DNA of 64,000 nucleotides from Candidatus Bathyarchaeota archaeon. Lineage in GTDB: Archaea; Thermoproteota; Bathyarchaeia; Bathyarchaeales; DTEX01. A model generated the notes under the pieces. That model did no database searches, had not been told where the DNA came from, and saw only the letters and a list, made by a program, of their open reading frames with translations. The stretch covers positions 448,001 through 512,000 of the forward strand of contig CAVQNT010000006.1 in assembly GCA_963714275.1 (NCBI GenBank), read 5' to 3'. Both the position numbers and the translations under genes were made by a program. Below, piece by piece: positions 43,752 to 58,500 of the stretch. How positions within the stretch are numbered: position 1 is the stretch's first letter; every line of letters begins with the position of its first letter.

Positions 43752-45254
<1,503 letters not shown>

Positions 45255-45273
45255 TGTATGGTCGCTTTTGTAA

Positions 45274-45300
45274 GGCTGAATTTTTGGGGTGCGCCAAGCC
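45274..45300 (-). other. 5' arm of the 16S processing stem (pairs with 43708-43736)
   Basis: GGCTTGGCGCACCCC and TTCAGCC are complementary to the trailer arm. Confidence 0.85.
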
Positions 45301-45463
45301 TATCTTGGATCTAAGTCCAATGCTCAGATCTGCATTTTTTGTTTCCGCAACTGGAGGTCAACTCTTCATTCTGAGGCTTGTTGCCTCGATGGTCTGAGTT
45401 GACGCCGCATTCGCGTATTGCGGTTTTGAGTCTGTTCGCTCAAGTTAGCATCTATACGAACAA

Positions 45464-45480
45464 CTTAATAAACTTTCTTT
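45464..45480 (-). promoter_or_regulatory. BRE-TATA promoter of the 16S gene
   Basis: The minus strand reads AAAGAAAG-TTTATTAA about 210 nt upstream of the 16S 5' end. Confidence 0.55.
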
Positions 45481-45620
45481 TAGGGATTTTTGCTGTGTAA
45501 ATGTAGGTTTAAACGTTTTTGCTTGGTCTGTTTTGCGGCGCACCTATGTTGTTTTGGGGCGTAAACGTGAAGAAACATCTAAGTTCATGTATATACTATT
45601 TCTGAGTTTAGTGGTTTCGT

Positions 45621-46838
45621 TTGGCGAAGGTTCAGAAAAGAAGTCTTGTGTTCCGCTCATTCAGCGCTTTTTTATTACTGTTCTTTCTATCGGTTTTGGT
45701 CGTCGGGTCCTTTGTTCCCCCTATTGTCTACGAGCCAGCGGACGATGATTCAGCGAACAGATTCTTCACGATTGCCACCACCGTGACCTATGAGAACAGG
45801 AACAGCCGAGGAGATGTCTGGCATTTCGCCGACGAAGACAGGGAGTTAGGCTTGTTCATGAACAACAGTTGGCAGACTGTTTACTTGCTTAACGTTTCGT
45901 TTCCTATAGCAAGGTTCGAGGCTGATCATGACGGTAACCCTACGGCTTACATTGATTTTCCTGAATCAGAAATTGGTCCACGCGAGAACTTGACTTACGA
46001 GGTTTTTTACAGGATCGTCCTTAAGCCTCGGGTTTTGCCACAGATTATTGTGAATGGTTCAGGTAGTTTAGCGGACATACCTGAAGGTTTGAAGGCTTTA
46101 TATTGTTCTTCTTCGGGTTCTTGGCAGTCAGACATATCCCTGATTCGTGATTTGGCTTTCAGGATAGTGGGAAACGACACACAGGTTCTATCAATACTGT
46201 CCGATTATATTTTGTGGATCACGCAGAACATTGAATATGGAAGCCTCGATGTTCCCCGTTTCCCTAATGAGACGTTGTTGGGACGCACAGGCGATTGTGA
46301 CGACCAAGCTAACCTTTTGGTTGGGTTATGCTGCACGGTGGGAATCCCCGCTTATCTGCAGATTGGATGCATCTATTTACCGGGCAGAACCAGTACAAGC
46401 AATTATTGGGACGGTTTGTGGACAAACACGTTAACTGACATTGGTTGGCATGGCTGGGCGGTCGTGTACGTGCCTCCTTGGGGTTGGCTGCCGGTCGACC
46501 TGACTTATTCTAGGGGGAACAATTCAGATCCCCTGAGTCACATCACCTCATCGGCGATCATAACAGATCTGACTGTGCAGTACGCGAATGTGACAGTGAC
46601 TGATTATGTTTCGGACTCACGCCGTGTGAAGAACGTCGTAATTTCCGAGATGCGCAGGATCATTACAAGCGACGTCATGGTTGAGGAGGTTCAGGAAAAC
46701 GAAACGTTGGAGTTTTCTGTTGGGGCGCCTTCACGGTTTAACGTCTACTTCGTAGTTTTCGTGTACGCAACGTGCGTGGTTATGCCATTTTTTGTGTTTT
46801 CCAGGTATGTTCGGGTTCGCAAAAGGGCGAATGCTTAA
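45621..46838 (+). CDS. Membrane-anchored transglutaminase-like protein
   Basis: GDCDD, GIPA, HGWA and W...D triad motifs. N- and C-terminal TM segments. Confidence 0.85.
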   Translation: MAKVQKRSLVFRSFSAFLLLFFLSVLVVGSFVPPIVYEPADDDSANRFFTIATTVTYENRNSRGDVWHFADEDRELGLFMNNSWQTVYLLNVSFPIARFEADHDGNPTAYIDFPESEIGPRENLTYEVFYRIVLKPRVLPQIIVNGSGSLADIPEGLKALYCSSSGSWQSDISLIRDLAFRIVGNDTQVLSILSDYILWITQNIEYGSLDVPRFPNETLLGRTGDCDDQANLLVGLCCTVGIPAYLQIGCIYLPGRTSTSNYWDGLWTNTLTDIGWHGWAVVYVPPWGWLPVDLTYSRGNNSDPLSHITSSAIITDLTVQYANVTVTDYVSDSRRVKNVVISEMRRIITSDVMVEEVQENETLEFSVGAPSRFNVYFVVFVYATCVVMPFFVFSRYVRVRKRANA

Positions 46839-46900
46839 TAATGGAGTCTTCGTTCATTACGTTCCGAATCTAATGGCTGTTTCGGAGCGAGTGTCTCAAG

Positions 46901-47305
46901 ATGGCAAAGTTTAAAGTTATAGTCTCAGACCCTGAGGATGGAAAGTCCAGCGTGGTTGAACTTGAGGAAAGCCGAGCTGCGCCTTTTGTGGGCAGAAAAA
47001 TCGGTGAAACAGTTGATGGCACCGTGCTTGGGCTTTCGGGACACACGGTCATCATAACGGGCGGAAGCGACAAGTCTGGGTTTCCGATGAGACCTGACGT
47101 TCACGGCGGAATCAAGAAAAAAATACTGCTTGGCCGAGGAGTGGGATTTAAGCCTTCACAAAAAAGTATCAGACGCAGAAAGACGATACGTGGAAACATA
47201 ATTACGGACGACATAGCCCAGATTAACGTGAGGATTGCTGAGAAACCAGCAAAGAAGCCCAAGAAGACTGAGGAAAAGTCTGAGCCAGCAAAAGAACCAG
47301 CATAG
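46901..47305 (+). CDS. rps6e: Ribosomal protein S6e
   Basis: FKVIVSDP, ITGGSDKSGFPM, RRRKTIRGN. Confidence 0.96.
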   Translation: MAKFKVIVSDPEDGKSSVVELEESRAAPFVGRKIGETVDGTVLGLSGHTVIITGGSDKSGFPMRPDVHGGIKKKILLGRGVGFKPSQKSIRRRKTIRGNIITDDIAQINVRIAEKPAKKPKKTEEKSEPAKEPA

Positions 47306-47838
47306 ACCAAATCTAGCTGCGCGTGCTGTATGAGCATTATTCTCTATATTAAATGTGGAATGTTAGAGACTTTATATTAGCACTAATAAATTAAAATAGT
47401 CATCGTTTCCAGTCTGGTCTGATTTGTTTTGCTTTTAAGTTTTTGTTTTGTGTGACAAACCAGAGTTTATTAAAAAACAAACCGTTTAAAAATACATTTG
47501 TCCCGTGGTTTCAGAACATTTGCTCATTGATTTGAATTGGTTTCTGGGCTGCACGGATTTTCAAAAAATAATAGTTATAAAGTCTTTGGTTCTTGTTTTC
47601 AAGGTTTTTTTAGATGTATTATTAATATATTTTTTTGCTATTTAATTGACATTCAAACCTTTTTTATAGTCTGCATACTTTCCATGAAAAGAAGGAGTGA
47701 TGCCACAGATGAGTGTAAATCAAGTAAGTAGAATACCATCTATTCCTGAAAAAATCAAAGGCACATTTTCCTTCTTTAACAGTAATAATAAATGTATGTT
47801 TTCTAAAGACCGAATTTACATTTGAAAAACTCTGGAGC

Positions 47839-48804
47839 ATGGAGGAAAAAATGAAAAGAGTTATCGGCAAGATACCTTCGTTGATGCCACCTATCGAGAT
47901 AGTTCAGGTTAAGAAGGAAGATCCGCAAGCTAAGGCCTTCGCTGAGCTAGAAGCATTATTTTCTGCGGCAGCAAGCATCGATGCGATAAAAATTTTCTAT
48001 GCTGCAAAAGATGGCATAAAGAGCTCCACTCAAGCCATAATAAAGCTGGACTTAACTCAGAAGAAATATTACACCAATCTCAAAAGACTCATCGATACGG
48101 GCTTGGTAGAAAGGGATAATGGAGCATATAAGCACACAACACTAGGTAAAATAGGCTTCAAACTTACAGAAGAATTAATGATTGCCATTAATCAAAAAGA
48201 CCGCTTAGATTTGGTTGACAAGTTATCTAAGGCAAAGAACATAACATTCGAAGAAACTGAGGAAATCATGCGCGCAATCCTGAAAGATACAAATCTGATA
48301 TCAGGAGAAAGGATAACGAATCTTTTAGGACCAGTCAGAATGGCAGATACTTGGGATAAAGTCGTCAATGATGTTTTGGATTTAATAAATAATGCTGAAA
48401 AAGAGATCTATTTTGTCACGCAATATTTGGATATGAAAGTTGTTGAATCCCTACTTAAAGCTGCTCAAAGGAATGTTAAAATGAAATTCTTGGTTGGTGA
48501 AGAAAAAAATATCACTGACGCGGTTCATTTACTTCTAAGATCATTGTTAACTGATCCAAAGTCACTAATGTCTCTTTTCGGATCTGTAAAATCTCCTGAT
48601 CTCCGCTATACGGAATTACCTTATACTTTCATAGTGGTTGACGGAAAATATTCAATGGTTGAGGTTCCCAAGCCGCATACCAAATCTTTTTCACTTGCCT
48701 TCTTCTTCCACAACGAAAAGCTCTCAGAAAGGCTCAAGGAATCCTTTAAAGCCCTCTGGGAAAATGCTTCAGAAATATTGATTCTAGAAAAATTCCCAAA
48801 ATAG
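47839..48804 (+). CDS. wHTH plus PLD-like (TrmB-type) sensor-domain regulator
   Basis: LTQKKYYTNLKRLIDTGLVER helix-wing. The C-terminus NAEKEIY...AAQRNV...FIVVDG...F..LW lacks the HKD motif. Confidence 0.65.
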   Translation: MEEKMKRVIGKIPSLMPPIEIVQVKKEDPQAKAFAELEALFSAAASIDAIKIFYAAKDGIKSSTQAIIKLDLTQKKYYTNLKRLIDTGLVERDNGAYKHTTLGKIGFKLTEELMIAINQKDRLDLVDKLSKAKNITFEETEEIMRAILKDTNLISGERITNLLGPVRMADTWDKVVNDVLDLINNAEKEIYFVTQYLDMKVVESLLKAAQRNVKMKFLVGEEKNITDAVHLLLRSLLTDPKSLMSLFGSVKSPDLRYTELPYTFIVVDGKYSMVEVPKPHTKSFSLAFFFHNEKLSERLKESFKALWENASEILILEKFPK

Positions 48805-49183
48805 GTTTCTTATCTCTAATTATAATGTAAGGGGTAGAGATATTAGAATAAGAGCTATTTGTGAAGTCACAAATAGGCTAAACATTGACTTACATGCTTT
48901 CTCATATAGTTTTTCTTCAAAGCTGTTTAGTAGCGGAAAAAGAAACGCGGCGCAATGGTTAAGAGTATTTTTAAGTCTTCTCCAAGGCCTACATCCTACC
49001 ATGGTCGATCCTATTCTTCCTCTATTGACCTCCACTATTTCATGCATCAATACGGATTTTTCTCAGGACTAAAAAGTTGGTTGAGCATCTTCTGAGCCAA
49101 CATATTCTTACCAGACTAGTAGAAAGCATTCCCGAAATGAGCTATTATATTTTTTTCTCATACCTTAGAATCCGATAAATGAA

Positions 49184-51524
49184 TCATAAAACCCATATTC
49201 TAATTCCCAAATTACTGTTAAGCTTTCCCATTTGAGGCGGCAAAACCTCGTCCGCTTTTTTTGTTCTACAAGATATTTTTACCATGAAGGTGGTTCCCTC
49301 CCCAACAACACTTTCAACAGTTATGCTGCCATTTAAAGCCTCCACCAACCGCTTACACACAGCCAACCCAAGCCCTTGGCCCTTAGCCTTCGTGGTGAAC
49401 AAAGGCTGGAACATCTTATTTAAGTTCTCCTCAGGAATTCCCACACCCGTATCTTTAAACCTGAAAAACACCTCCTCAGATGTTCCAGAAACCTTTATCG
49501 ACAAACGACCACCATCAGGCATAGCCTGCACGGCGTTCAGAATCAAATTCGTGAAGACCCGCTTCAACAAATAAGAATCAGCCAAAAATACGGTAGCGTT
49601 TTCCTCAACATCAATAGAAACTTTGATTGTCTCAGGAACCTTTATCGCTAACAAGGTTTCATTAAGCAACCTCTTCGATTCAACCTCAACAAACTCAGGC
49701 TTCACCGGCCTAGCATAATCCTGCAAGTCTGAAACAATCTTATTCATGTATTCAACCTGCTCCTCAATAACATCAAGCGATTCCTCAAGTTCCCCCTTCG
49801 ATAAAGACCCCAGCTGCATCCTAGCAAGGTAAAGAACATTTACAATAGCCTGCAACGGATTACGAAGATCATGACCCACCATAGCAGCTGCCTCCCCAAT
49901 AGCAGCAAGCCTCTGAGACTTCAAGAGGTTTTCTTGTACCTCTTTCAGTTCTCTAGTTTTCTCATCAATCAACTCTTCCAAGTAATCTGAGTATAACTCA
50001 TAAATCTGGGTTTTAGGCACCTTTGTCGCTAATGTTCCTAGCAATCTCGGGTAAACCCCGAGAGAAATAGCAACATCTTTATTCAGTAATAGGACTAACC
50101 TCAGTTTATTCAGTATCTCATCAATTTCGTTCTTTGAATCTGTCTGTAGCCAGTCATAAACGGAACTTAAGAAATTGTTGATTGTCTCGATGACTAACTG
50201 CATTCGTTGGTCTGAATATATCCTTTGAATCTGCTCTTTGAATTCCTTGAGCGACACCTCACCATATCCAGTAATTTTTATCGCATTAATTAAACTAGTT
50301 CTGCCAGGAATTTCCATGTTTTGAATCATGCCTGCAATTGGCAACAATATTCTTTTATAGATTCTCAGGCAAGCATCAATTTCGTCCAAATCATCCAAAC
50401 TTTCGTCGCGATCAATACTTTCAAGAAATCTCCCTTGAGAGACACCGTATACAAGGTCAGTTTTTTTCAAGATATCCAGGTTATATTGTATTAAATCGTA
50501 CGACTTCCACCTAAGCCTATAATCCGCTGCATTGAGAACTCGTAAATAATAGTCAGTTACCTCGTCAGGGGTTTGATATTTCTCGAAATACGCCAAATTT
50601 TTATTAATCAAATTAATTATATCAAACTTCTCAGGCTCTGTAAACGTAACACCTCCTTTATTAAAGGAAACATAGCCATCAATCTTTGAGTTTATTAAGA
50701 AATCCTTGAACTCGTGGAATTCTTCACCAAGATAGCCTACTGGCAGTATATTGATAATAGACTTTTAAAAATGACGAATAGATTTCAGAGAAATCCACTA
50801 GTTTCTCAACTGATGTGGAAGGCATCTTTTCTTTTAAAGACAGTGCGTACCAAATTGTCAAAAATGCTAGGAACTGCATTATTCCTCCCATTTGGAAAAT
50901 CGGATCTAGGGAGCCTGTTGCTTGTAACGCGTTTACTACGGTCGTTCCAAGAATCTGGAAAGATATAAAACTTCCAAGAAGAATAGTGTACTTTCTTCTG
51001 AGTAATTGAGCCCGTGTATTTCTGATTAGAATAAGTAAAGCTAAAACGACCCCGAACAGATATGACACAAAGATGACGCCGACAAAAATCAAAATGGGTT
51101 GAAAGCTATTAACTTTATATACCCAACCAAGTTCGTTCTGAAAGAATTCATAACTCATTATATAACTGTCTTGAAATATTAAGATGCTTTGCACTATCGC
51201 AGGTAGTAAAATAATCAGAAGAAATCTGAAATCTCTTCTCTCACGAATATTAAAAACAGTGAAGAGGAAAATGGGATAGCACAGATGGCTACTTAATATC
51301 ATTATTCTAAAGAACGTCATGGCTGCCGATACATCAGGTGCTGTCCTATAAAGAAAGGTGGTGCATTCCCAAACTGTGACTATCAAACCGAATATCAACA
51401 AACACTTCGAAGCTAGAGTCCTAGGTCCCTTAACCAAAACGTATATCGAAACAAGAAGTGAGAGAGCTCCACCTATCAAATATTGGATTTCATTCATACT
51501 TAGTAACTCTTCCAATGTTTTCAT
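49184..51524 (-). CDS. Membrane sensor histidine kinase (7TM-type N-terminus, frameshift near 50725)
   Basis: About 7 TM helices in ORF 50724..51524. H-box VGHDLRNPL, N-box NAVQA, DTGVG, FTTK and GQGLGL in ORF 49184..50611. Confidence 0.85.
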
Positions 51525-51660
51525 GTAGTCAAGGCTTTATTGAAATTATGAACCCTTAGTAAATATCATAAAACTGTAAGCTAAAACTTAATAGCCTATG
51601 ATACTGTTAAATATCATCTAGCTAAGTGTAGATATTGCGTTAGCTAGTATCAGTGAATTC

Positions 51661-53295
51661 TTGATGAAGAACGTAAATCTCTGGGATAAATACTGCCGAT
51701 TTTATGAGAAGGACTTTACAGAACAATTAGAGTTTAACAGGAATCGACTGAAATCATACTTCTCAGCTTGGAAGAAGACCGACCTTGTAAAAGAACTTTG
51801 CCAAACTATCCCAGAACGGCACAAAGATGTTCCCATTACAACATATTCAAGCTACCCTATGTTAAGCGAATTCGGCAGAAAAATAACACAAACATCAGAA
51901 ACAAGCCCCAGAAAACAAGGCGAATTATTCAAAACATATTATGATCACGTCAGTCGCGAAATTGGTTCTTCACTTAACCATTTCATGGTTGAGCCTTACT
52001 ATATGTGCGCAAAAACCACAGGCACCACAGGTCAATATAAATGGATCGTTTATGGCGAAACTTTCTGGAAAAACTTTCAACAAGCGTCCATCGCAACTGC
52101 AGTAATTGCCTGTAGCGAAAGCTGGGGAGAAACCAGCCTCAATCATGGAGACAAATCTCTAAATCTAAATGCTGCCGTACCATTGATCTCAGGCTGGGGA
52201 GCTTGGGCGACCAAAGATATATTGAGTTTAGTCCCTCCCATCGAAATAGCGGATAATCTTCGAGACATGAAGGAAAAATTTAGTCTCATACTCAAGCTAA
52301 TACAGAAAGGCGAAAAAATATTAGTAGCAGGCGGGATTGGCTCAATCTTCTTTATGATATGCAAATATTTCCAGAAGCCCGAAGATTTCTACAGGGAGTA
52401 CTACAAATCAATGAACATGGACCTGAAAAAACTTCTCCTATATCTAAAAATCCTATCAATCAAACTAGGTCAAAAAAAGAAAATAAGAATAACCGAGGTC
52501 ATGCCACTCAAAGGAGTCCTTGTCGCAGGAGTAGAAGGACGACTTTATCTAGACTTTTTCAGAGAAGAGTTTAACCTAAGCCCACTTCACATTTATGGAT
52601 CAACAGAAGCCGGACCACTAATGAGAGGAGACCCAGATAGAAAAGAAGACCTAGTTCCCGAACTTAAAACCAGCTACTTGGAATTCCTAACAGAGGATGG
52701 AGAAATCAGAGAACTAGACGAAGTCAAAAAGGGAGAAGTATACGAACTGGTTGTAACCCCCTTTGGCTCGTTAATTTACCGCTACAACATGGAAGACCTT
52801 TTAAGAGTCATAGATTTCAGGGATGACGGTATGCCAATATTTACTTTTGAAAGCAGAAAGAAAACCATACTAGAGCTGTATAGCCGTTACAGAATAACTC
52901 CAAACATCATTGTACAAGCCCTTTCCAAGGCAGGCTTAAGAGCATCTGACAAATGGGCAGTTGCTAAGCCCTTAAAGCCTAAAGAACATCTTCATTTTCT
53001 AATGGAAAAGGAATGGCCGTACTCTGAAGTTGAAGCAGAGAAAATCATCTTTAATTACCTTCAAGAAACATATCGCACAATTCCGCATGGCGGAGATGTC
53101 CTCACTGACTATATAGCCCATTATAAAATTAAGAATCCTTCAGAAGTAGTTAAAGTGGAATATTTAAAACCCGGCGCTTTTACTAGATACTCAATGAAGA
53201 AAGCAAAAGAAGGGGCTCCAATGGGTCAATATAAACCGCCACAAATCATTACAGCTGACAAGATGGATGTTTTCGATACCTTAAGGAAAATATAG
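51661..53295 (+). CDS. GH3-family (ANL-like) acyl-adenylate/amido synthetase
   Basis: VPITTYSSY, P-loop KTTGTTGQYK, YGSTEAG, YELVVT, YRYNMED and the C-terminal GQYKPP. Confidence 0.82.
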   Translation: MMKNVNLWDKYCRFYEKDFTEQLEFNRNRLKSYFSAWKKTDLVKELCQTIPERHKDVPITTYSSYPMLSEFGRKITQTSETSPRKQGELFKTYYDHVSREIGSSLNHFMVEPYYMCAKTTGTTGQYKWIVYGETFWKNFQQASIATAVIACSESWGETSLNHGDKSLNLNAAVPLISGWGAWATKDILSLVPPIEIADNLRDMKEKFSLILKLIQKGEKILVAGGIGSIFFMICKYFQKPEDFYREYYKSMNMDLKKLLLYLKILSIKLGQKKKIRITEVMPLKGVLVAGVEGRLYLDFFREEFNLSPLHIYGSTEAGPLMRGDPDRKEDLVPELKTSYLEFLTEDGEIRELDEVKKGEVYELVVTPFGSLIYRYNMEDLLRVIDFRDDGMPIFTFESRKKTILELYSRYRITPNIIVQALSKAGLRASDKWAVAKPLKPKEHLHFLMEKEWPYSEVEAEKIIFNYLQETYRTIPHGGDVLTDYIAHYKIKNPSEVVKVEYLKPGAFTRYSMKKAKEGAPMGQYKPPQIITADKMDVFDTLRKI

Positions 53296-53304
53296 CCCGT
53301 GTCT

Positions 53305-53691
53305 CTAAAATTGGGACCACGAAAGACTGAGTATCTTGCCCGCTATTTCAAAAGACACCTTGTTGGCAGCAATACCTAGGCAGATTAAGACAGCAAAACC
53401 GTACAATGGAACGTAGATCAAATTTAGGCTCGAAGACCACATAATAAAGGCGAATGACTCAAGTAGAACCCTGAATAAATAGACCCCAGACAATATTAAA
53501 TACAGAACGTAGTTGTCCCTCGCCACTATAAGGATAGGCAATACTAAAAATATGGCAACCGAGACTAAATTCAATGCCCAGAAGCCGAGAGGGTCTGGAA
53601 AAACAGGCTCATTAACGCCTAATATACCCAAAACAGCAACAATGTTAGCGAAAGCAAGCAACACCAAATACGTTTTCATCTGTCGCCCCAA
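53305..53691 (-). CDS. Small 4-TM membrane protein
   Basis: Four hydrophobic helices. Last gene of an operon with the receiver gene. Confidence 0.7.
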   Translation of the reverse strand: MGRQMKTYLVLLAFANIVAVLGILGVNEPVFPDPLGFWALNLVSVAIFLVLPILIVARDNYVLYLILSGVYLFRVLLESFAFIMWSSSLNLIYVPLYGFAVLICLGIAANKVSFEIAGKILSLSWSQF

Positions 53692-53697
53692 TTGACA

Positions 53698-54006
53698 CTA
53701 GATTCCAACCTCCTTTCTTAAAAGCCGCAGGTAGTCTGCGAATGCGTAATCCTTTCTCCACTTCAGTTCCGCATTTAACCTGGAAAATAGATTTTCAAGA
53801 ATCAAGTCCTCAACAATTGTCGCTCCATTTCCTAGAATTTTGTGTAGAGAATCGGAAAAACACTGGACCCGAGTATCTAATTTCCCTTTATCATTTTCAC
53901 CTATAAACTGAAGAAGAGTCAAAGCTGTACGATTATCAAAAACATTTTCCAATACTTCCCTTATTGTCTTTACTAGAATATCATCGAAATTGATTGTTTT
54001 TTGCAT
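53698..54006 (-). CDS. Small helical protein (DUF3227-like, signalling-associated)
   Basis: FDDILVKTIREVL..VF...FSDSLHKILGNGATIVEDLILENL...F.DY. Confidence 0.55.
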   Translation of the reverse strand: MQKTINFDDILVKTIREVLENVFDNRTALTLLQFIGENDKGKLDTRVQCFSDSLHKILGNGATIVEDLILENLFSRLNAELKWRKDYAFADYLRLLRKEVGI

Positions 54007-54455
54007 TATGCTTCGCCGGTCTTCAGCTTCATCACACGGTTTTCTATCCAATTCCTTACTTTCTCTTCACTCATCTTCTCTACTTCTTCTTGTTCACCTA
54101 GTTTTTCTTTTACCTCCTTCAACAACATTTTCGGGTTAACGGGTTTCATTAGGTACGCGTCTGCGCCCAAGTTCAGAGATTGCACAGCATTATCGAGCTC
54201 TGGGTAACCCGTCACCATAATCTTCATCATTTTAGGCTCAGTCTGATGAATCTTTGAAAGCAGTTTCGTCCCATCCATGTCTGGAAGCTTAATATCCAGC
54301 AGAACAAGATTGTAGAAGTTAGCCTGAAATTTCTTTATGGCTTCTTGACCAGTCCCCGCTGTGTCAACACGATAACCCTCCATATTCAGTACACCCTCAA
54401 GACTCTTGAGGATAACTTGATCATCATCAACAATAAGAATGCTTTTTCCTTTCAT
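54006..54455 (-). CDS. Stand-alone response regulator receiver
   Basis: ILIVDDD, LLDIKLPDMDG, VTG, YLMKP. Confidence 0.92.
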   Translation of the reverse strand: MKGKSILIVDDDQVILKSLEGVLNMEGYRVDTAGTGQEAIKKFQANFYNLVLLDIKLPDMDGTKLLSKIHQTEPKMMKIMVTGYPELDNAVQSLNLGADAYLMKPVNPKMLLKEVKEKLGEQEEVEKMSEEKVRNWIENRVMKLKTGEA

Positions 54456-55047
54456 TTTACAGCTCACGTCTTGTAGGCTTTTAATCAAGACATGCAAATC
54501 TATTTTATATATGAATTATGAATCTAGGATACAGTTTTTAAAAGACAAAAAAAGCTGCTAGATCTGACCATAGAAGAACCTTTTGTAACTCCAACAATAA
54601 CGGATTTCGTAGGAATCAGTATACCAGCTTTCTCATTACCAAAAAAACTTAATATAATTTAGAATCTTATTTGCTCTAGAATTCTTTTTCTTAGATGGAG
54701 ATGCAAATGTTATTTTCATTTAGGTGTTGCTCTTCATTACATTCAAGACAGATGAATGTTGCGTCCAAGATTAAAAGAAAAACATACTGATTGAGAAGTG
54801 GTAATAGAGTCAACATGCCAATTCATGGATGATTCAATATTGGATGAAAAAAATAAAGGATATTCCCCTTCCCATAAAAGCAGAAACTGCTTATTTATCT
54901 TTATTAAACAAAATTAGGACAGTAACTTTTCATGGAACAATCGGAAAGGTTCTTGCTATACCTCTCTCAGACCATCCATCTATTTGGAGTGCTCCAATCC
55001 TTGATTTTTACTTCACTAGACATCATCGAATTGCTGTTTAGACATAA

Positions 55048-55386
55048 CTAGATAACCAGTCCTGAGTATAGTCCTAGGATTACGAGTATGTTGTTTATTG
55101 TACCTATGTATGATGCAATTGCAAGCCCATTGATACCAAGTGTCCAAGGCTTTTTTCTCGGTAATGTCAATGTGAGTATAGTTATAGCTGTCCAGAAGAT
55201 TAATAATGCAAAAACTGGGCTGTATTGCATTTGAGTTTCGTAAAGACCCGTATAAAAGTTCAGACCTATTGTCGTAGTTGTATAGTCAGATATGATGCCT
55301 CCTAGTGCCAGAAAGAAGGGCAGCATCCAAGATTTCAGTATCACGCTTGTTTTCACCAAAAGTCGTTTATAAATATGTATTTTCAA
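55048..55386 (-). CDS. Small membrane protein
   Basis: Three TM segments with a SDYTTT..GL...YE motif. Confidence 0.6.
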   Translation of the reverse strand: MKIHIYKRLLVKTSVILKSWMLPFFLALGGIISDYTTTTIGLNFYTGLYETQMQYSPVFALLIFWTAITILTLTLPRKKPWTLGINGLAIASYIGTINNILVILGLYSGLVI

Positions 55387-55769
55387 TATATATTTGTGAA
55401 ATATAAAATTAACTAACTTAAAAAAGGTGCGAAAGCATCTTAAGAAGGGAAAATCTATAACTCACATTAGCTACTTTTTTCTAAAATTTTACAATATTGC
55501 TCTCTTTATTATTCTTGAAGTCTTTTTGTAAAATTTTTTTATACCTCTTCTTCTACCTTTTATGCTCCCCCTTTACTCTCTCACACGTGTGTATAAAAAA
55601 TGTAAATATATTTTTTTAGGATACTATCTGAAGAGAAATATTTTGGAAGAAATAGAATTAATGAAGAACCAAATTCAGAGAACGAACTAAAAAATAAATT
55701 TAAGAGAAAATGAAATTGACGTCAAAAAGGCTTTAGACAATTACATGATTAAGCAAGACGAGATTTAGG

Positions 55770-55964
55770 ATGAAATTGAAGAATCAAATAGACAAGACTG
55801 AAAATATAGGCGAAAAGTTTTTTAAAGAAGACTTGAAAGGATTCGGTGAAATCGAGTCCGGTGTTGTTTATAAAGTAAGAACAGATTTACCAAAAATAAT
55901 AACACAAGAACTTTTCATTGTGTTCAAAGGATTTATGGAGTGTAAGGAAAGAATTAGGTGGTAA
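55770..55964 (+). CDS. Hypothetical protein or fragment
   Basis: Short AT-rich ORF, may extend upstream across a stop. Confidence 0.3.
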   Translation: MKLKNQIDKTENIGEKFFKEDLKGFGEIESGVVYKVRTDLPKIITQELFIVFKGFMECKERIRW

Positions 55965-56047
55965 TTGCACCTAAAACGAAAAGAGCAATAAAAAGATTGA
56001 TCGTTTCCATTTTAATCCATCTTAATCATATAAAGTAACTGGCTAAT

Positions 56048-56317
56048 TTAATCAATTCCGAATTCTTGTAGACTATAGAACTGCTGAAGGTATTCTATGC
56101 CTTTTTCAGTGGTTTTAATTAAACCGCCGTTGCCTTCAGAGTTTGCGATTAATCCTGCTTTTTTGAGTTTTTCAAGGTACTCGTCCAGCATTTTGAAGTT
56201 CATGTTCACTCCATATACTATTCTGGTTTTTTTGGCGCCTTTTCTCGCAATCTTCAGAATCTCAGCAACAATTTCTAGGTTACTTCTTCTTTGAGACATA
56301 GACATTTTCGTTAACAT
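56048..56317 (-). CDS. Small winged-helix transcription regulator
   Basis: RRSNLEIVAEIL...KTRIVYGVNMNF...YL..L...GLI...TTEKG..YL. Confidence 0.85.
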   Translation of the reverse strand: MLTKMSMSQRRSNLEIVAEILKIARKGAKKTRIVYGVNMNFKMLDEYLEKLKKAGLIANSEGNGGLIKTTEKGIEYLQQFYSLQEFGID

Positions 56318-56417
56318 CGTTTTTTACCTCGCTTTTGAATTATGGTTCAATGTTTCTGACTAACACAAGGTTGGACTTCCTAAACTGAACCTAATGTAAA
56401 TTCAGTCACTTGCGCAG

Positions 56418-56735
56418 TCATCGCATTAAATGGCTAGAAGACTCCTTTGCCTTTTCAAGGATGTCTTCAGACGGGTTTTTCAAGGGAGTAATAGGCTCTA
56501 GAGGAGTCTCTATCATAGTGTTTTGTATTGCTAAGGCTTGCCTCGACTCTTTAAGTCCTTCCTTTGCCCTTTCAAAAATATCTTCAGACGGTTTTATCAA
56601 GAGAGTAATAGGTTCTTGAGGAGTTTCTATCATAATGTTTTGTGTTGCCAAGGCTTGCTTAGATTCTTTAAGTCCTTTCAGATAGAGTCTTGCTCCAAGT
56701 TCTATTTCATCAATTTCTTCTCTTTTGTTGAACAT
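56418..56735 (-). CDS. Small protein made of two 39-aa tandem repeats
   Basis: Two 117-bp units at 56443-56559 and 56560-56676. SD GAGGT upstream. Confidence 0.7.
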   Translation of the reverse strand: MFNKREEIDEIELGARLYLKGLKESKQALATQNIMIETPQEPITLLIKPSEDIFERAKEGLKESRQALAIQNTMIETPLEPITPLKNPSEDILEKAKESSSHLMR

Positions 56736-56959
56736 TGTTTCTTACCTCGCTTTCTAATTATAGTTCTATGTTTACCAGTAACTGACTAAGCCTATTTTAA
56801 GGTTTTCTAACAAAAAAAGACAGTTTTTACCAATATTAAACAAAAGAAAACGTTTTTTACCACATAAAGAAAAACGATCATATTATTTCTGGTTTATGGA
56901 AAAAATAATTCAATTTGTCCAATTTTGGGAAAAAATTTTAAAATGATCAAAAATCTAAT

Positions 56960-57551
56960 TTAACCGATCACTCTGCCTTCCACAATTTTGTTTTCGGGGA
57001 TACCTATTTCAGCGGAAAGCCACCGTCTTGCCGTCTTCGAATTGATGACAGTCTTGTAAGCAGCGTCTCCATCAACCGACATATTTCCTTCAGACGCAAG
57101 CATCTGATCCTCGTCTGATTCAGGGCTTCTTTCTATCCAGCGCCTTACGCCTTTATTCACAGGCATCATCGTTTCGTTGAGCTCTACAGAAAAAGTGAAC
57201 ATGTACAGGTCCGAAACAGAGTAAAAGAATGCTTGTTCGCCAATCACCTCGTAGGCTACGAGCAAAGACTCCTTGACTGGCGCCCTTGAAAGACTGCCAG
57301 CTTTTGCAGTTAACCGTTACCAGAGGACCCTTTGTCCCTGTGGCTCCGATAATGTTTCGTATTTTTTGTCCTCCCAGATGTTCGAGTACCCGGTCGAGGA
57401 CTGCCGCCTTCTCTTCAAAAGTCGAAAGATCATTACACACGGCATCGAACCTATCGGCAATTTTTGAAAGCGACTCCTCATGGTCCCTAAGAATGCTTAT
57501 TAGTATGTCTAAAACGTCGACTTTTTCCTGAAATTCCTTAGGAGAAGGCAT
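56960..57551 (-). CDS. Conserved-looking hypothetical protein (frameshift near 57270)
   Basis: KVDVLDILISILRDHEESL...CKSWQSFK, joined to LVAYEV...RRWLSAEIGIPENKIVEG. Confidence 0.6.
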
Positions 57552-57718
57552 ACACGCAAACCTCAGTACAGCATTTCAACATCTAAGAACTTATTAAGAG
57601 ATGCGAAAGCCGATTAAGAACATAAAATCTATAAATCACTATGAGATTTTCATACGTATCTAAAAAATAAAACATAAAAATAAATAAATCCAGTTTATTA
57701 AGACAAGTCATCTAAGCC

Positions 57719-58500
57719 TTAAACCATAGTGGCTATGGATCTTAACCTTAAAACCTCAGTTTGGTCAAGACCTCCCTGTTGTAGAGCGTCTAAAGCAGCA
57801 TACAGGACCCTGAGAGCTTCCTCAACGCTTGGAAGATCATCTGGAATACTTAATCTCGTTGTAGTAGTCCCGTGAATTCCGTGGGCTACTACTTTTAGAT
57901 CAAGTCTGTCAATTTTCTTCTGTATTGCTTGAGGAGTCTTATTCATCGTTGTAGCTATGAGATTAACAGGCTTCTCTTGTTCACACAATTCCCGTAGTTG
58001 CTTTTCCTCCTCAGTCTGTCCAAGGCTTACCTTTCAGCAAATCAATCACCTTTTCAGTTTGTCCTTGAAATACCATTCAACCGCAAGTAAGACCAAAGGC
58101 ACAAGGACTTTGCCGCTTTCCGCATCTCCCCTGATGAGAATGATAACAAGCCCAAGGACGAGAATTAAAGCGATTAAGAAACGGTAGTCAGCCATCCCGA
58201 CTTTGATGCCAAGATTCTTAATTGTTATCCGTGGCTCTTTTCGGGGCTCAGGCATTAAAGGTTCTCCTCTTAATTATGCGCCTACGACCAGAAGTAAAGC
58301 TCAACAATAGAAGCTCGGCGACGTCAGGCGGAATCTCAGTTTTGTGGATAACCGTTACGCCGTCAAGGAAGCTACAGGGATGCAAGTGTAATCGACTTCG
58401 TAAAAGTCGTTGTTAAGTTTGAAACTATTTTGGGCGAGAACAATATGTCTCCGTTTCTGTCCAAGGACTCTCAGGTATATCCCCCAAGCGCGCGCTATGA
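57719..58500 (-). pseudogene. Relic of a virus-like gene cluster: fragment, small membrane protein (58046-58255) and truncated HTH protein
   Basis: Fragment GIYLRVLGQKRRHIVLAQNSF...DYTCIP. HTH protein LKGKPWT..EEEKQLREL...LPSVEEAL..L..AL...GLDQTEVLRLRSI ends early at 57719. Confidence 0.5.

Follow-up and report, generated by a model that had tools for sequence, protein, structure and literature searches.

A GH3-family enzyme and a seven-helix membrane domain form an ancient input unit in archaea and bacteria

A 64,000-nucleotide stretch of Candidatus Bathyarchaeota DNA (the window) carries a GH3-family gene divergent from a seven-helix (7TM) membrane sensor and histidine kinase. This arrangement raises the question of whether an enzyme and a receptor for its product are encoded side by side. 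An earlier note on the sequence had proposed a synthase-plus-receptor layout like quorum sensing, which would make and sense an N-acyl amino acid. The genes are present as the note described, with two corrections that concern the sensor, which is one gene, and a DUF3227 label. Their pairing points to an unstudied signalling system around a small acid–amino-acid conjugate. The core of the locus is composed of the following features.

49184–50611, minus strand: C-terminal part of the sensor (475 aa), containing the helical cytoplasmic M1–M2 region, then HisKA and HATPase_c
50735–50740, minus strand: frame break splitting the sensor kinase in the assembly
50724–51524, minus strand: N-terminal part of the sensor (266 aa), containing a HisKA_7TM-like seven-helix domain and the start of cytoplasmic M1
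51525–51660, no strand: divergent intergenic region between the GH3 and sensor genes (136 bp)
51661–53295, plus strand: predicted GH3-family adenylating amido synthetase, soluble, 543–544 aa
53305–53691, minus strand: TM4, a predicted small membrane protein with a conserved C-terminus, EILSLxWSQF
53698–54051, minus strand: p117, a small protein predicted to be helical and cytoplasmic (about 101 aa given a start at 54003)
54006–54497, minus strand: stand-alone receiver (REC) response regulator, Response_reg 104.5 bits

The assignment of the enzyme to the GH3 family holds, as profile, fold and motifs agree. In Pfam searches, the protein matches GH3_M at 36.0 bits, above the cut-off of 23.6, and GH3_C at 21.4 bits, below its cut-off; the N-terminal GH3 model gives no match. 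Ten of the 11 PDB matches to a profile of 26 relatives are plant GH3 structures, with a best E value of 3.4e-10. The AF2 model (pLDDT 88.6) retrieves plant GH3 at Foldseek ranks 1–14 (best E value 2.3e-18) and PaaK-type ligases from rank 17 on. The three nucleotide motifs, recognisable as TTGTTGxxKW, YGSTE and YRYxMED, are all kept, as is a C-terminal GQYKPP that aligns with GQYKTPR of GH3.12. Across 31 sequences from several phyla, the catalytic motifs vary little or not at all, and identity to the reference is 42–70%. The adenylation activity foreseen by the earlier note is thus upheld at the motif level, and the enzyme is probably catalytically active. The gene is single-copy in its genome. 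Its likely start is the ATG at 51664, since the database copy is 543 aa long.

The window's enzyme shares its fold and family with plant GH3 proteins (JAR1/GH3.11, PBS3/GH3.12, GH3.5 and GH3.6), but its identity to the structures is only 13–17%, and the Pfam N-terminal model finds no counterpart in it. Unlike the plant enzymes, it is prokaryotic and encoded with a membrane receptor.

The sensor is divided in the assembly into a 7TM ORF and a kinase ORF that lie in different frames, and the junction can be read in both frames without a stop. Agreement with the relatives runs to YYQYTAS in the 7TM frame and resumes at YLGEEF in the kinase frame. In the 10 relatives checked, the sensor is a single ORF of 748–794 aa. 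The window contains an extra base at 50736, which is absent from both public contigs spanning the site (runs X1 and X4), one of them otherwise identical to the window. Because the base is missing from both contigs and the relatives have a single ORF, the sensor is one gene, and the split is an assembly error or a private mutation. The 7TM sensor kinase described beside GH3 is therefore present, with its two ORFs belonging to one gene rather than being separate and unrelated.

The 7TM domain scores 27.1 bits against HisKA_7TM (PF16927), just below the Pfam cut-off of 28.6, and one archaeal orthologue clears the cut-off at 29.5 bits. The window's sensor has the N-terminal seven-helix domain of HisKA_7TM kinases. 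The domain contains seven hydrophobic cores, and the bias of lysine and arginine places the N terminus outside and the C terminus inside. A 7TM profile search of the same genome matches this domain only. Five of the seven best conserved positions (Y15, G133, W134, N198 and G214) lie on the outer side; the other two are G193 within TM6 and K178 in an inner loop. Neither of the two papers found to name HisKA_7TM gives a ligand for it. The M1–M2 region is modelled as mostly helical (pLDDT 87), and its predicted structure matches no clear known fold. The kinase part matches HisKA at 44.4 bits and HATPase_c at 93.1 bits (Pfam), and its translation displays an H-box, HDLRNPL, along with N, G1 and G2 boxes.

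GH3 and the 7TM domain prove to be linked much more tightly than the earlier note had supposed. Of 40 non-redundant archaeal loci, 37 have a homologous 7TM protein adjoining GH3, and in the other three GH3 lies at a contig end; the 40 loci fall into about six supported clades and are kin, not independent counts. Among 61 relatives, 19 carry both genes, 40 carry neither, and two show a single partner, both at contig ends. GH3 is patchily distributed in a phylum sample of 301 genomes, occurring in 18. Both genes are found in 17 of these and neither in 283, and in the remaining genome GH3 is cut by a contig end. For 16 of the 17 pairs, the listed 7TM match begins no more than about 30 nt from GH3; the pair in the window is divergently arranged. 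In 19 of the 23 loci with both genes on one strand, the GH3 stop codon either overlaps the start of the 7TM gene or is no more than 5 nt away. The pair is kept through three gene orders, one en-bloc inversion and varying flanks. In one genome (G162) the whole operon occurs as two paralogous copies, whose GH3 proteins are 74% identical and whose 7TM proteins are 79% identical. The archaeal records are labelled Bathyarchaeia, Nitrososphaeria/Thaumarchaeota, Brockarchaeota, Thermoplasmata and Hydrothermarchaeota. The GH3 and 7TM trees contain the same supported clades, and the kinase forms constitute one clade with 100% support in both. Linkage in every other genome with a readable flank and co-phylogeny with the sensor, two of the checks proposed by the earlier note, are thus both observed. 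The co-inheritance of GH3 and 7TM is strict and ancient.

The part of the receptor that accompanies GH3 is the 7TM-M1 core, which is constant in all architectures adjoining GH3, while the output domain varies. A kinase follows the core in 22 loci (layouts A and B), and an inactivated KaiC (iKaiC, DUF835-like) follows it in 16. Of these 16 loci, 14 have a single-domain KaiC ATPase gene visible upstream and 12 the wHTH gene too, both belonging to the receptor's operon. The histidine kinase output is a Bathyarchaeia-specific replacement of the iKaiC output. The GH3–kinase pairing of the earlier note therefore stands as a linkage, but the conserved partner is the 7TM domain and the kinase is lineage-specific.

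The pairing also exists beyond archaea. In a bacterial sister clade of GH3, labelled Chloroflexota/Anaerolineae, Dehalococcoidia, Spirochaetota, Clostridia and a few others, a receptor adjoins GH3 in 69 of 80 loci. Fifty of these receptors were examined: 41 match HisKA_7TM, with scores of up to 70 bits, and 49 match GAF, which occupies the M1–M2 position. Their outputs are a kinase (31), HD-GYP (12), GGDEF-HD-GYP (2), GGDEF (1) and STAS (1), with three cut or lacking an output. A methyltransferase gene is present in 54 of the 80 loci, nearly always directly upstream, with 52 of 54 measured distances at or below about 160 nt. Fifteen of the 54 belong to a membrane PEMT/ICMT-like cluster, which suggests a lipophilic substrate. 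PEMT-like membrane enzymes occur beside the bacterial GH3 or fused to it. This cassette of methyltransferase, GH3 and HisKA_7TM receptor lends support to the synthase-plus-receptor layout. Since the GH3–7TM pair is constant while its transmitters are swapped in archaea and bacteria, GH3 and the 7TM domain are an ancient input unit. The earlier interpretation is borne out in part: the linkage, the shared clades of the two trees, the single sensor gene and the conserved motifs agree with it, and its framing around the kinase and archaea has to be broadened.

Several known systems resemble parts of this unit. LuxM/LuxN, CqsA/CqsS and PhcB/PhcS each encode a signal synthase beside a polytopic membrane kinase, and the Rpf/DSF cluster contains the ligase RpfB, the kinase RpfC and the HD-GYP protein RpfG. 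PhcB is a methyltransferase and RpfB an ANL-family ligase. These systems combine an enzyme that works on a lipophilic small molecule, as proposed for GH3, with a multi-helix membrane sensor encoded next to it and kinase or HD-GYP outputs, but their enzymes and sensors belong to other, unrelated families. To our knowledge, none of them uses GH3 or HisKA_7TM and none is archaeal. A literature search of incomplete coverage found no comparable GH3–receptor signalling system in archaea, in line with the earlier note.

Archaeal signalling modules of KaiC and inactivated KaiC were reportedly described by Makarova et al. in 2017. The 16 GH3-linked receptors ending in a DUF835-like iKaiC resemble them; the window's receptor differs, with HisKA-HATPase in place of iKaiC. 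DUF835 is listed as iKaiC in the accessible part of Galperin et al. 2018 (PMC5847659), which makes no mention of a GH3 partner. A bacterial parallel is OlsH of Singulisphaera acidiphila, described in PMC12493201, which also sets out the three nucleotide-binding motifs of GH3. This GH3-like protein, with divergent but recognisable motifs, joins free fatty acids to ornithine to give N-acyl ornithine, and a methyltransferase gene lies in the same operon, as in the bacterial sister cassette. In that description, however, OlsH acts together with the O-acyltransferase OlsI to build a membrane lipid, and no receptor gene adjoins it; the archaeal and bacterial GH3 cassettes, compared with OlsH by description, have a receptor and, among their Pfam-annotated neighbours, no OlsI-like gene.

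How might the unit work? The reading that we consider most likely, with somewhat less than even confidence, is that GH3 makes a lipophilic conjugate sensed by the 7TM domain. The input unit would consist of the cytoplasmic adenylating enzyme and the HisKA_7TM-kind membrane receptor, wired in the window to the histidine kinase, the stand-alone receiver, p117 and TM4. GH3 would adenylate a carboxylic acid with ATP and couple it to an amino acid or amine. The product would be an amphipathic conjugate drawn to the membrane, where the 7TM domain, with its best conserved residues towards the outer half, would recognise it. The signal would then pass through the helical M1–M2 region to the kinase, the receiver and, by protein contacts, p117 and TM4. 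In this reading, the 7TM domain would respond to the product and not to the substrate or to GH3 as such. The signal may pass from cell to cell, as in quorum sensing, or act on its producer alone.

This product-sensing scheme is favoured by the adjacency in 37 of 40 loci, the co-occurrence, single copies, tight coupling and shared history of the two genes, the swapping of outputs, the bacterial sister clade and the duplication of a whole module in G162. The kept catalytic motifs, the outer-face 7TM residues and the OlsH precedent argue in the same direction. Against it count the kinship of the loci, the receiver without a DNA-binding output, and the archaeal loci, in which no conserved methyltransferase and no exporter were found. 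The GH3 identity across phyla is easier to reconcile with a single common metabolite than with signals particular to each species. Free fatty acids are not known as typical archaeal compounds, which weakens the assignment of an acyl substrate. The gene order would also suit GH3 as a turnover enzyme or as a regulated output.

Turnover and adaptation, an unlikely alternative on present evidence, would have the 7TM domain sense a lipophilic acid arriving from other cells or the environment, with GH3 conjugating the internalised acid and so switching the signal off. The bacterial methyltransferase would join GH3 in this inactivation, much as plant GH3 acts on auxin; conjugation and methylation are classic steps by which acid hormones are inactivated. 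The fatty-acid signal of the DSF system, sensed by a multi-TM kinase with an HD-GYP output, is removed by an ANL-family ligase. The linkage data serve this explanation equally well, the outer-face residues suit an external stimulus, and the high cross-phylum conservation of GH3 suits a common compound. However, it offers no separate synthase-free logic and no uptake system is conserved. A detoxifying enzyme is usually needed above the level of a sensor, yet translation of the two genes is coupled in those 19 of the 23 loci with both on one strand. Short-looped sensors embedded in the membrane often respond to its properties, and GH3 might instead make an N-acyl amino-acid membrane lipid while the 7TM domain monitors the membrane and feeds back on lipid composition. 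The PEMT-like neighbours and fusions of bacterial GH3 agree with this, and OlsH, a characterised prokaryotic GH3, starts ornithine-lipid synthesis from an operon with a methyltransferase (PMC12493201, accessible text). We regard such homeostasis as rather improbable: the Pfam-annotated neighbours include no OlsI-like O-acyltransferase, GH3 is a single copy co-translated with a low-abundance sensor, and a presence in 18 of 301 genomes is odd for membrane building. The same text also states that aminolipids of the OlsH type are absent from archaea.

The gene order is compatible with co-sensing as well, in which GH3 would bind M1–M2 and its catalytic cycle or substrate load would gate the transmitter, so that the cell senses its intracellular acid, amino acid or ATP level. 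Bacterial enzymes and transporters do serve as co-sensors of kinases, the stop–start overlaps suggest matched amounts of GH3 and receptor, and M1 is kept wherever the receptor adjoins GH3. The best conserved sensor residues are outer rather than cytoplasmic, however, bacterial receptors carry GAF at the M1–M2 position with no common docking surface evident, and no GH3–sensor fusion was found (weak evidence); this makes a trigger enzyme quite improbable. Synteny without shared function is close to refuted. Many loci come from related genomes, so that counts overstate independence, but the pair survives three gene orders, an en-bloc inversion, changed flanks and exchange of the output domain, occurs in several archaeal lineages and the bacterial sister clade, and shows a near-perfect match of presence and absence.

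The 136-bp divergent gap between GH3 and the 7TM gene is as the earlier note gave it. A conserved block, TTTATTCGGGTTATGAA..GAAATCCAT (consensus), adjoins the start of the sensor gene in eight layout-A loci, and in the window's region the 10-nt sequence TAAATATCAT is directly repeated, at 51560 and at 51608. The block and the repeat may act as promoters.

The genes converging on the 3' end of GH3 are the receiver, p117 and TM4. The receiver translation displays an acidic pocket, the phospho-acceptor Asp and conserved Thr and Lys. Eleven of the 12 layout-A loci have p117 immediately behind the receiver gene, and the remaining locus is truncated at the contig edge. The protein is likely a partner or output of the receiver. 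Its alignment begins at ORF residue 17, and each genome contains several paralogues. The placement of these genes in the earlier note stands, but the DUF3227-like label of p117 is unconfirmed: none of six orthologues has a credible Pfam match at E ≤ 10, and the PF11537 model finds no match in the genome at the same threshold. As a weak lead from a language model, the nearest named cluster lies at 0.87, with PF11537 on 12% of its members. TM4, the '4-TM gene' of the earlier note, matches no family in Pfam searches. It is found in all 12 layout-A loci and, in locus L035, beside a 7TM-iKaiC gene.

Three further genes flank this core.

47839–48804, plus strand: wHTH/TrmB/PLD-like regulator (Regulator_TrmB 27.4, PLDc_2 27.8 and DUF7436 34.7 bits, all above their cut-offs)
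55048–55386, minus strand: small membrane protein
56048–56317, minus strand: small HTH_45/Sso10a-type wHTH (HTH_45 75.9 bits, Sso10a family 78.3 bits)

The two regulators named by the earlier note are thus present. The TrmB/PLD-like gene is detected by tblastn in eight of the 11 other layout-A loci, at varying positions relative to the module, and is absent from L023 by the same search. The small membrane protein and the small wHTH lie on the far side of the module in some layout-A loci. All three are flanking synteny and not part of the core. The island is AT-rich, as had been noted: the GC content of 47839–56735 is 37.4%, compared with 43.4% for the genome, which places it in the lowest 3.7% of 9-kb windows.

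The genes surrounding the GH3-7TM module, as given by the ORF listing and family scans, are the following.

Genes around the GH3-7TM module (window positions, strand, product)
45621-46838, +, transglutaminase-like gene (TGase)
46901-47305, +, ribosomal protein S6e
47839-48804, +, wHTH/TrmB/PLD-like protein
49184-50611, -, kinase ORF with HisKA and HATPase_c domains
50724-51524, -, seven-helix membrane ORF (7TM)
51661-53295, +, GH3-like gene
53305-53691, -, TM4, a small membrane protein
53698-54051, -, p117, a 117-aa ORF
54006-54497, -, stand-alone receiver
55048-55386, -, small membrane protein
56048-56317, -, HTH_45/Sso10a-type wHTH
56418-56735, -, 105-aa internally repeated ORF

The divergent gap between GH3 and 7TM measures 136 bp and the island is AT-rich, both as described in the earlier note. 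The GC content at 47839-56735 is 37.4%, compared with 43.4% for the genome, and lies within the lowest 3.7% of 9-kb windows.

The assignment of the enzyme to the GH3 family stands. The window protein matches the Pfam model GH3_M with 36.0 bits (cut-off 23.6) and GH3_C with 21.4 bits, just below its cut-off; the N-terminal model PF03321 gives no match. A profile of 26 relatives retrieves 11 PDB matches, 10 of which are plant GH3 chains (best E 3.4e-10). The confidently predicted structure (pLDDT 88.6) displays the two-domain ANL/GH3 fold. When it is used as a Foldseek query, plant GH3 structures occupy ranks 1-14, with E down to 2.3e-18, and PaaK-type ligases appear from rank 17. The three nucleotide-binding motifs of GH3 enzymes, as listed in the available text of PMC12493201, are all present: 26 sequences show no variation at G121, T123, G124 and K127, at Y312, T315 and E316, or at D379, and across 31 sequences the nucleotide-motif residues are unchanged or conserved to at least 90%. 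The C-terminal GQYKPP, likewise invariant or nearly so, aligns with GQYKTPR of GH3.12. Since the enzyme lacks membrane segments and requires ATP, it should work in the cytoplasm.

The 7TM and kinase ORFs lie in different frames, both of which are open through the junction. The corresponding parts of the relatives form a single ORF of 748-794 aa. Aligned to these proteins, the 7TM frame matches until YYQYTAS and the kinase frame from YLGEEF, which locates an extra base within 50735-50740. Contigs from four public runs were aligned to the window; just two span position 50736, and both lack this base, one being otherwise identical to the window. The missing base and the fused ORF of the relatives indicate that the split reflects either a mistake in the assembly or a mutation private to the window. 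The two ORFs are hence not the truly separate genes that the earlier note had considered as an objection. With the extra base discounted, the kinase is, by its sequence, intact. Family scans detect HisKA (44.4 bits), HATPase_c (93.1 bits) and, in the receiver, Response_reg (104.5 bits). The H-box histidine of the kinase and the aspartate of the receiver are present in the translations, and the catalytic residues are kept in both proteins, which together have the parts expected of a two-component system. The sensor gene of a same-genus relative (locus L038, G005:C63:1068-1868) carries one in-frame TAA in its assembly, leaving ORFs of 148 and 618 aa.

The receptor begins with seven hydrophobic cores, and this domain is fused to HisKA-HATPase in the relatives. 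The window domain scores 27.1 bits against HisKA_7TM (PF16927), under the cut-off of 28.6, and 26.5 bits in the genome search. An orthologue (L023) reaches 29.5 bits, the library representatives P0128 and P0133 were pre-assigned to HisKA_7TM, and our own 7TM profile matches 12 bacterial HisKA_7TM receptors at E<=1e-3. The counts of lysine plus arginine are 3.2, 2.8, 5.2 and 5.2 for the inner loops versus 0.2, 1.8, 1.1 and 0.2 for the outer loops, a bias that places the predicted N-terminus of the domain outside. The loops are short. Outer-side positions make up five of the seven best conserved ones; of the remaining two, TM6 contains one and an inner loop the other.

In the full-length alignment, the 7TM domain is followed by the cytoplasmic region M1 in every form, by a second region, M2, in the longer forms, and finally by HisKA-HATPase or an inactivated KaiC domain (iKaiC). 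Foldseek returns no match for M1-M2 at E<=0.001. The best Z of a wide VIA search, 6.5, is within the noise for helical proteins, and the best hit of a language-model search (score 0.85) is unnamed. A weak search for GH3-receptor fusions yields no match among proteins of 953-2720 aa. The papers naming HisKA_7TM report no ligand for the domain.

The flanks of GH3 orthologues were fetched in relatives and across the species collection, and a neighbour matrix was derived from our own profiles. A homologous 7TM protein adjoins GH3 in 37 of 40 non-redundant archaeal loci, and in the three exceptions GH3 sits at a contig edge. The linkage on which the earlier note had made its proposal depend is therefore found. 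Three gene orders predominate. Layout A, present in 12 loci including the window, has GH3 divergent from the 7TM kinase, with receiver, p117 and TM4 converging on GH3. Layout B (10 loci) contains GH3 followed by the 7TM kinase on the same strand. Layout C (16 loci) is composed of a wHTH gene, a single-domain KaiC, GH3 and then 7TM fused to a DUF835-like domain; of these loci, 14 have KaiC upstream and 12 show the wHTH gene, and two are cut upstream. DUF835 is listed as an inactivated KaiC in the available text of PMC5847659. The window's own module contains neither a KaiC ATPase nor an iKaiC domain and is not KaiC-based. In two further loci, from a Thermoplasmata and a Hydrothermarchaeota record, GH3 precedes a 7TM protein among other signalling neighbours. 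The GH3 stop and 7TM start overlap or are at most 5 nt apart in 19 of 23 same-strand loci.

The five-gene block at 49184-54497 (receiver, p117, TM4, GH3 and 7TM kinase) runs, as one unit, in the opposite direction to its counterparts in two other loci, L022 and L025. Its flanks are unchanged, with TGase, S6e and TrmB/PLD on one side and the small wHTH on the other, where L022 also has the small membrane protein. A search for inverted repeats that would account for the inversion found short imperfect pairs only, none of them at the module borders.

Among 61 relatives, a GH3 orthologue occurs in 20 genomes and the 7TM domain in 20, with both in 19 and neither in 40; the genomes used for linkage and co-occurrence are kin, and these counts are not independent events. 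The two single-partner genomes are explained by assembly ends: GH3 begins at base 159 of its contig in G058, and the 7TM gene hits the end of a 6152-bp contig in G004. A sample of 301 genomes spread evenly over the phylum contains GH3 in 18, 7TM in 17 and neither in 283. In 16 of these 17, no more than about 30 nt separate GH3 from the start of the 7TM match, the seventeenth being the divergent pair of the window, and the lone GH3 is truncated by a contig end. Among 201 Thermoplasmatota genomes sampled, the module is rare, with 2 carriers. The window's genome has one copy each of GH3 and the 7TM domain. In being linked and co-inherited, the two genes show what would be expected of a quorum-sensing synthase-receptor pair.

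The receiver of the window has no output domain. The most likely start of p117 is at 54003, giving a 4-nt overlap with the receiver stop. The p117 protein is predicted to be small and helical and matches no family, and several paralogues are present per genome. G001, G010, G022 and G052 each encode 2-4 p117-like proteins distant from the GH3 module. The label 'DUF3227-like' that the earlier note had attached to p117 was not borne out. NitrOD5, with the model PF11537, is presumably the same family as DUF3227. The PF11537 model matches none of six p117 orthologues and nothing in the window's own genome at E<=10; it is silent in five Nitrososphaeria genomes as well, where the controls are silent too. 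The nearest named Atlas cluster (score 0.87) carries PF11537 on 12% of its members. As described in the available text of PMC5847659, NitrOD5 proteins of Thaumarchaeota are about 100 aa long, occur as several stand-alone copies per genome and directly follow a REC gene. The likeness of p117 to them in size, copy number and post-REC position is one of behaviour only. TM4 accompanies the GH3-7TM pair in one KaiC-type locus as well.

A GH3 profile search of the full library separates into three tiers and gives 75 cluster representatives at E<=1e-30. About 22 belong to the archaeal clade, and a second tier consists of proteins of 530-545 aa that match all three Pfam GH3 models. The second-tier loci (80 kept of 303) are all bacterial, mostly from Anaerolineae and other Chloroflexota, with Spirochaetota, Clostridia and others. 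One protein cluster adjoins GH3 in 69 of the 80 loci, in 68 cases as the next gene downstream in the same orientation; in 8 of the 11 loci without it, GH3 is at or near the locus end. When 50 of these bacterial receptors were scanned, HisKA_7TM was detected in 41 and GAF in 49. Their outputs are kinase (31), HD-GYP (12), GGDEF-HD-GYP (2), GGDEF (1) and STAS (1), and three are cut or have none.

A methyltransferase gene is found in 54 of the 80 bacterial loci, nearly always directly upstream of GH3 on the same strand, at a distance of about 160 nt or less in 52 of 54 measured. A UbiE-type cluster accounts for 40 loci and a PEMT/ICMT-like membrane cluster for 15. The archaeal loci have no conserved methyltransferase, with weak generic matches in two distinct loci. 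In the representative library, P0289 is a 744-aa protein in which a PEMT-like membrane methyltransferase is fused to a sister-clade GH3, a hint that methylation and conjugation may act on one substrate. At the N-terminus (window 51661-51720; alignments A1, A4 and A10), the two receptor-linked GH3 clades have the motif W-x-K-Y-C-(S/G)-F in common. All sequences of the archaeal set carry its cysteine, as do at least 90% of the bacterial ones. We know of no such motif in plant GH3 enzymes. The bacterial sister cassette is carried by at least one organism that has been cultured, Alkalithermobacter paradoxus DSM 7309 (L168), which makes the idea testable without growing a Bathyarchaeon.

Quick maximum-likelihood trees, both unrooted, were built for GH3 and for receptor residues 1-400. 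They agree in their supported clades, the co-phylogeny that the earlier note had proposed to check, and the kinase-type forms constitute a single clade with 100% SH-aLRT in each. The trees fit what would be a single swap of KaiC-type output for a kinase inside Bathyarchaeia. As the trees are unrooted, we infer the direction from KaiC type to kinase because the KaiC type is spread more widely. Such a swap would be a clean case of archaea re-wiring a native sensor to bacterial-type two-component parts.

Near relatives within genus g1 and family f1 (G000, G001, G021, G027 and G031) differ in layout: the window has layout A, the same-genus G001 layout B, and three same-family genomes the KaiC type. 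Nearly all carriers are single-copy. The mixed layouts among near kin, the single copy and the low GC suggest module replacement or transfer. G162 (82% complete, 1% contamination) has two complete wHTH-KaiC-GH3-7TM-iKaiC operons, L089 and L090 on contigs C66 and C90, that are 74% identical in GH3, 79% in the receptor and 92% in KaiC. A V4R domain was considered for the wHTH partner in KaiC-type operons; one clear and two weak matches among 10 proteins were too thin, and this identity was dropped.

The 7TM domain keeps one enzyme partner while its output varies among five kinds, which argues that GH3 belongs to the input side. That GH3 makes the ligand read by the 7TM domain has, in our estimate, slightly less than an even chance of being right. 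A lipophilic GH3 product would partition into the membrane and be read there by the 7TM domain, which would reconcile a cytoplasmic GH3 with conserved 7TM residues on the outer side. A product of this kind would also fit a bacterial cassette with methyltransferases of membrane type, as well as the chemistry known for OlsH, a bacterial GH3-like N-acyl-ornithine synthase that joins free fatty acids to ornithine according to the available text of PMC12493201. Alternatively, GH3 may act on the input by removing an incoming acid signal, which we regard as unlikely, or the module may balance a membrane aminolipid, an explanation that seems rather improbable. It is very unlikely that GH3 gates the receptor by contact; a complex prediction for GH3 and receptor residues 1-400 scores 0.00, without controls, and bears neither way.

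The high conservation of GH3 across phyla speaks for what would be one common compound, not strain-specific signals. The two diverged complete operons of G162 run counter to this. A broader prediction is that, in this clade, the HisKA_7TM domains serve specifically to receive lipo-amino-acid signals from the adjacent GH3, the two forming an ancient hormone-like make-and-sense pair of Archaea and Bacteria; we hold it tentatively and think it more probably wrong than right. If true, the GH3-7TM pair would plug into the transmitter of each lineage, whether KaiC, a histidine kinase or c-di-GMP enzymes. No endogenous small-molecule signal with its receptor would have been defined before it in non-halophilic archaea, and GH3 hormone conjugation would trace its prokaryotic origins to signalling, not to metabolism. 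Strict co-inheritance of enzyme and receptor provides a concrete, testable ligand hypothesis for orphan HisKA_7TM domains and orphan archaeal GH3 enzymes jointly.

The closest known kinds of system pair a signal enzyme with a membrane kinase, as in LuxM/LuxN, CqsA/CqsS, PhcB/PhcS and the Rpf/DSF cluster, but their parts differ from GH3 and HisKA_7TM. To our knowledge, very few archaeal signalling pathways are understood. The kinase of an archaeal quorum-sensing two-component system is a cytosolic PAS/GAF protein in the available text of PMC13464002. In agreement with the statement that no such archaeal system has been characterised, the literature searched contains no GH3-receptor pairing; earlier KaiC-hub work may cover the KaiC-type operon.

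Several smaller features were observed in the region. PADLOC finds no defence-system match for GH3, 7TM, TM4 or p117, and solely generic domain matches for the remaining genes (PLD, REC, GHKL ATPase and a weak winged-helix model). The divergent promoter region contains an exact 10-nt direct repeat, TAAATATCAT, at 51560-51569 and 51608-51617, 48 nt apart; it is not kept in the other loci compared, and its two copies can be of chance origin. The 105-aa ORF at 56418-56735 (-) matches no family in the scans and consists of a unit of about 39 residues, LKES.QALA.QN.MIETP.EPIT...PSEDI.E.AKE, present twice in tandem. The only RNA gene found in 44000-58500, where tRNAs are absent, is an archaeal 16S rRNA gene at 44000-45254 (-). 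It covers model positions 1-1229 of 1478, since the searched stretch begins inside the gene, accounts for the GC peak at 44-45 kb and is separated from the module by about 2.5 kb.
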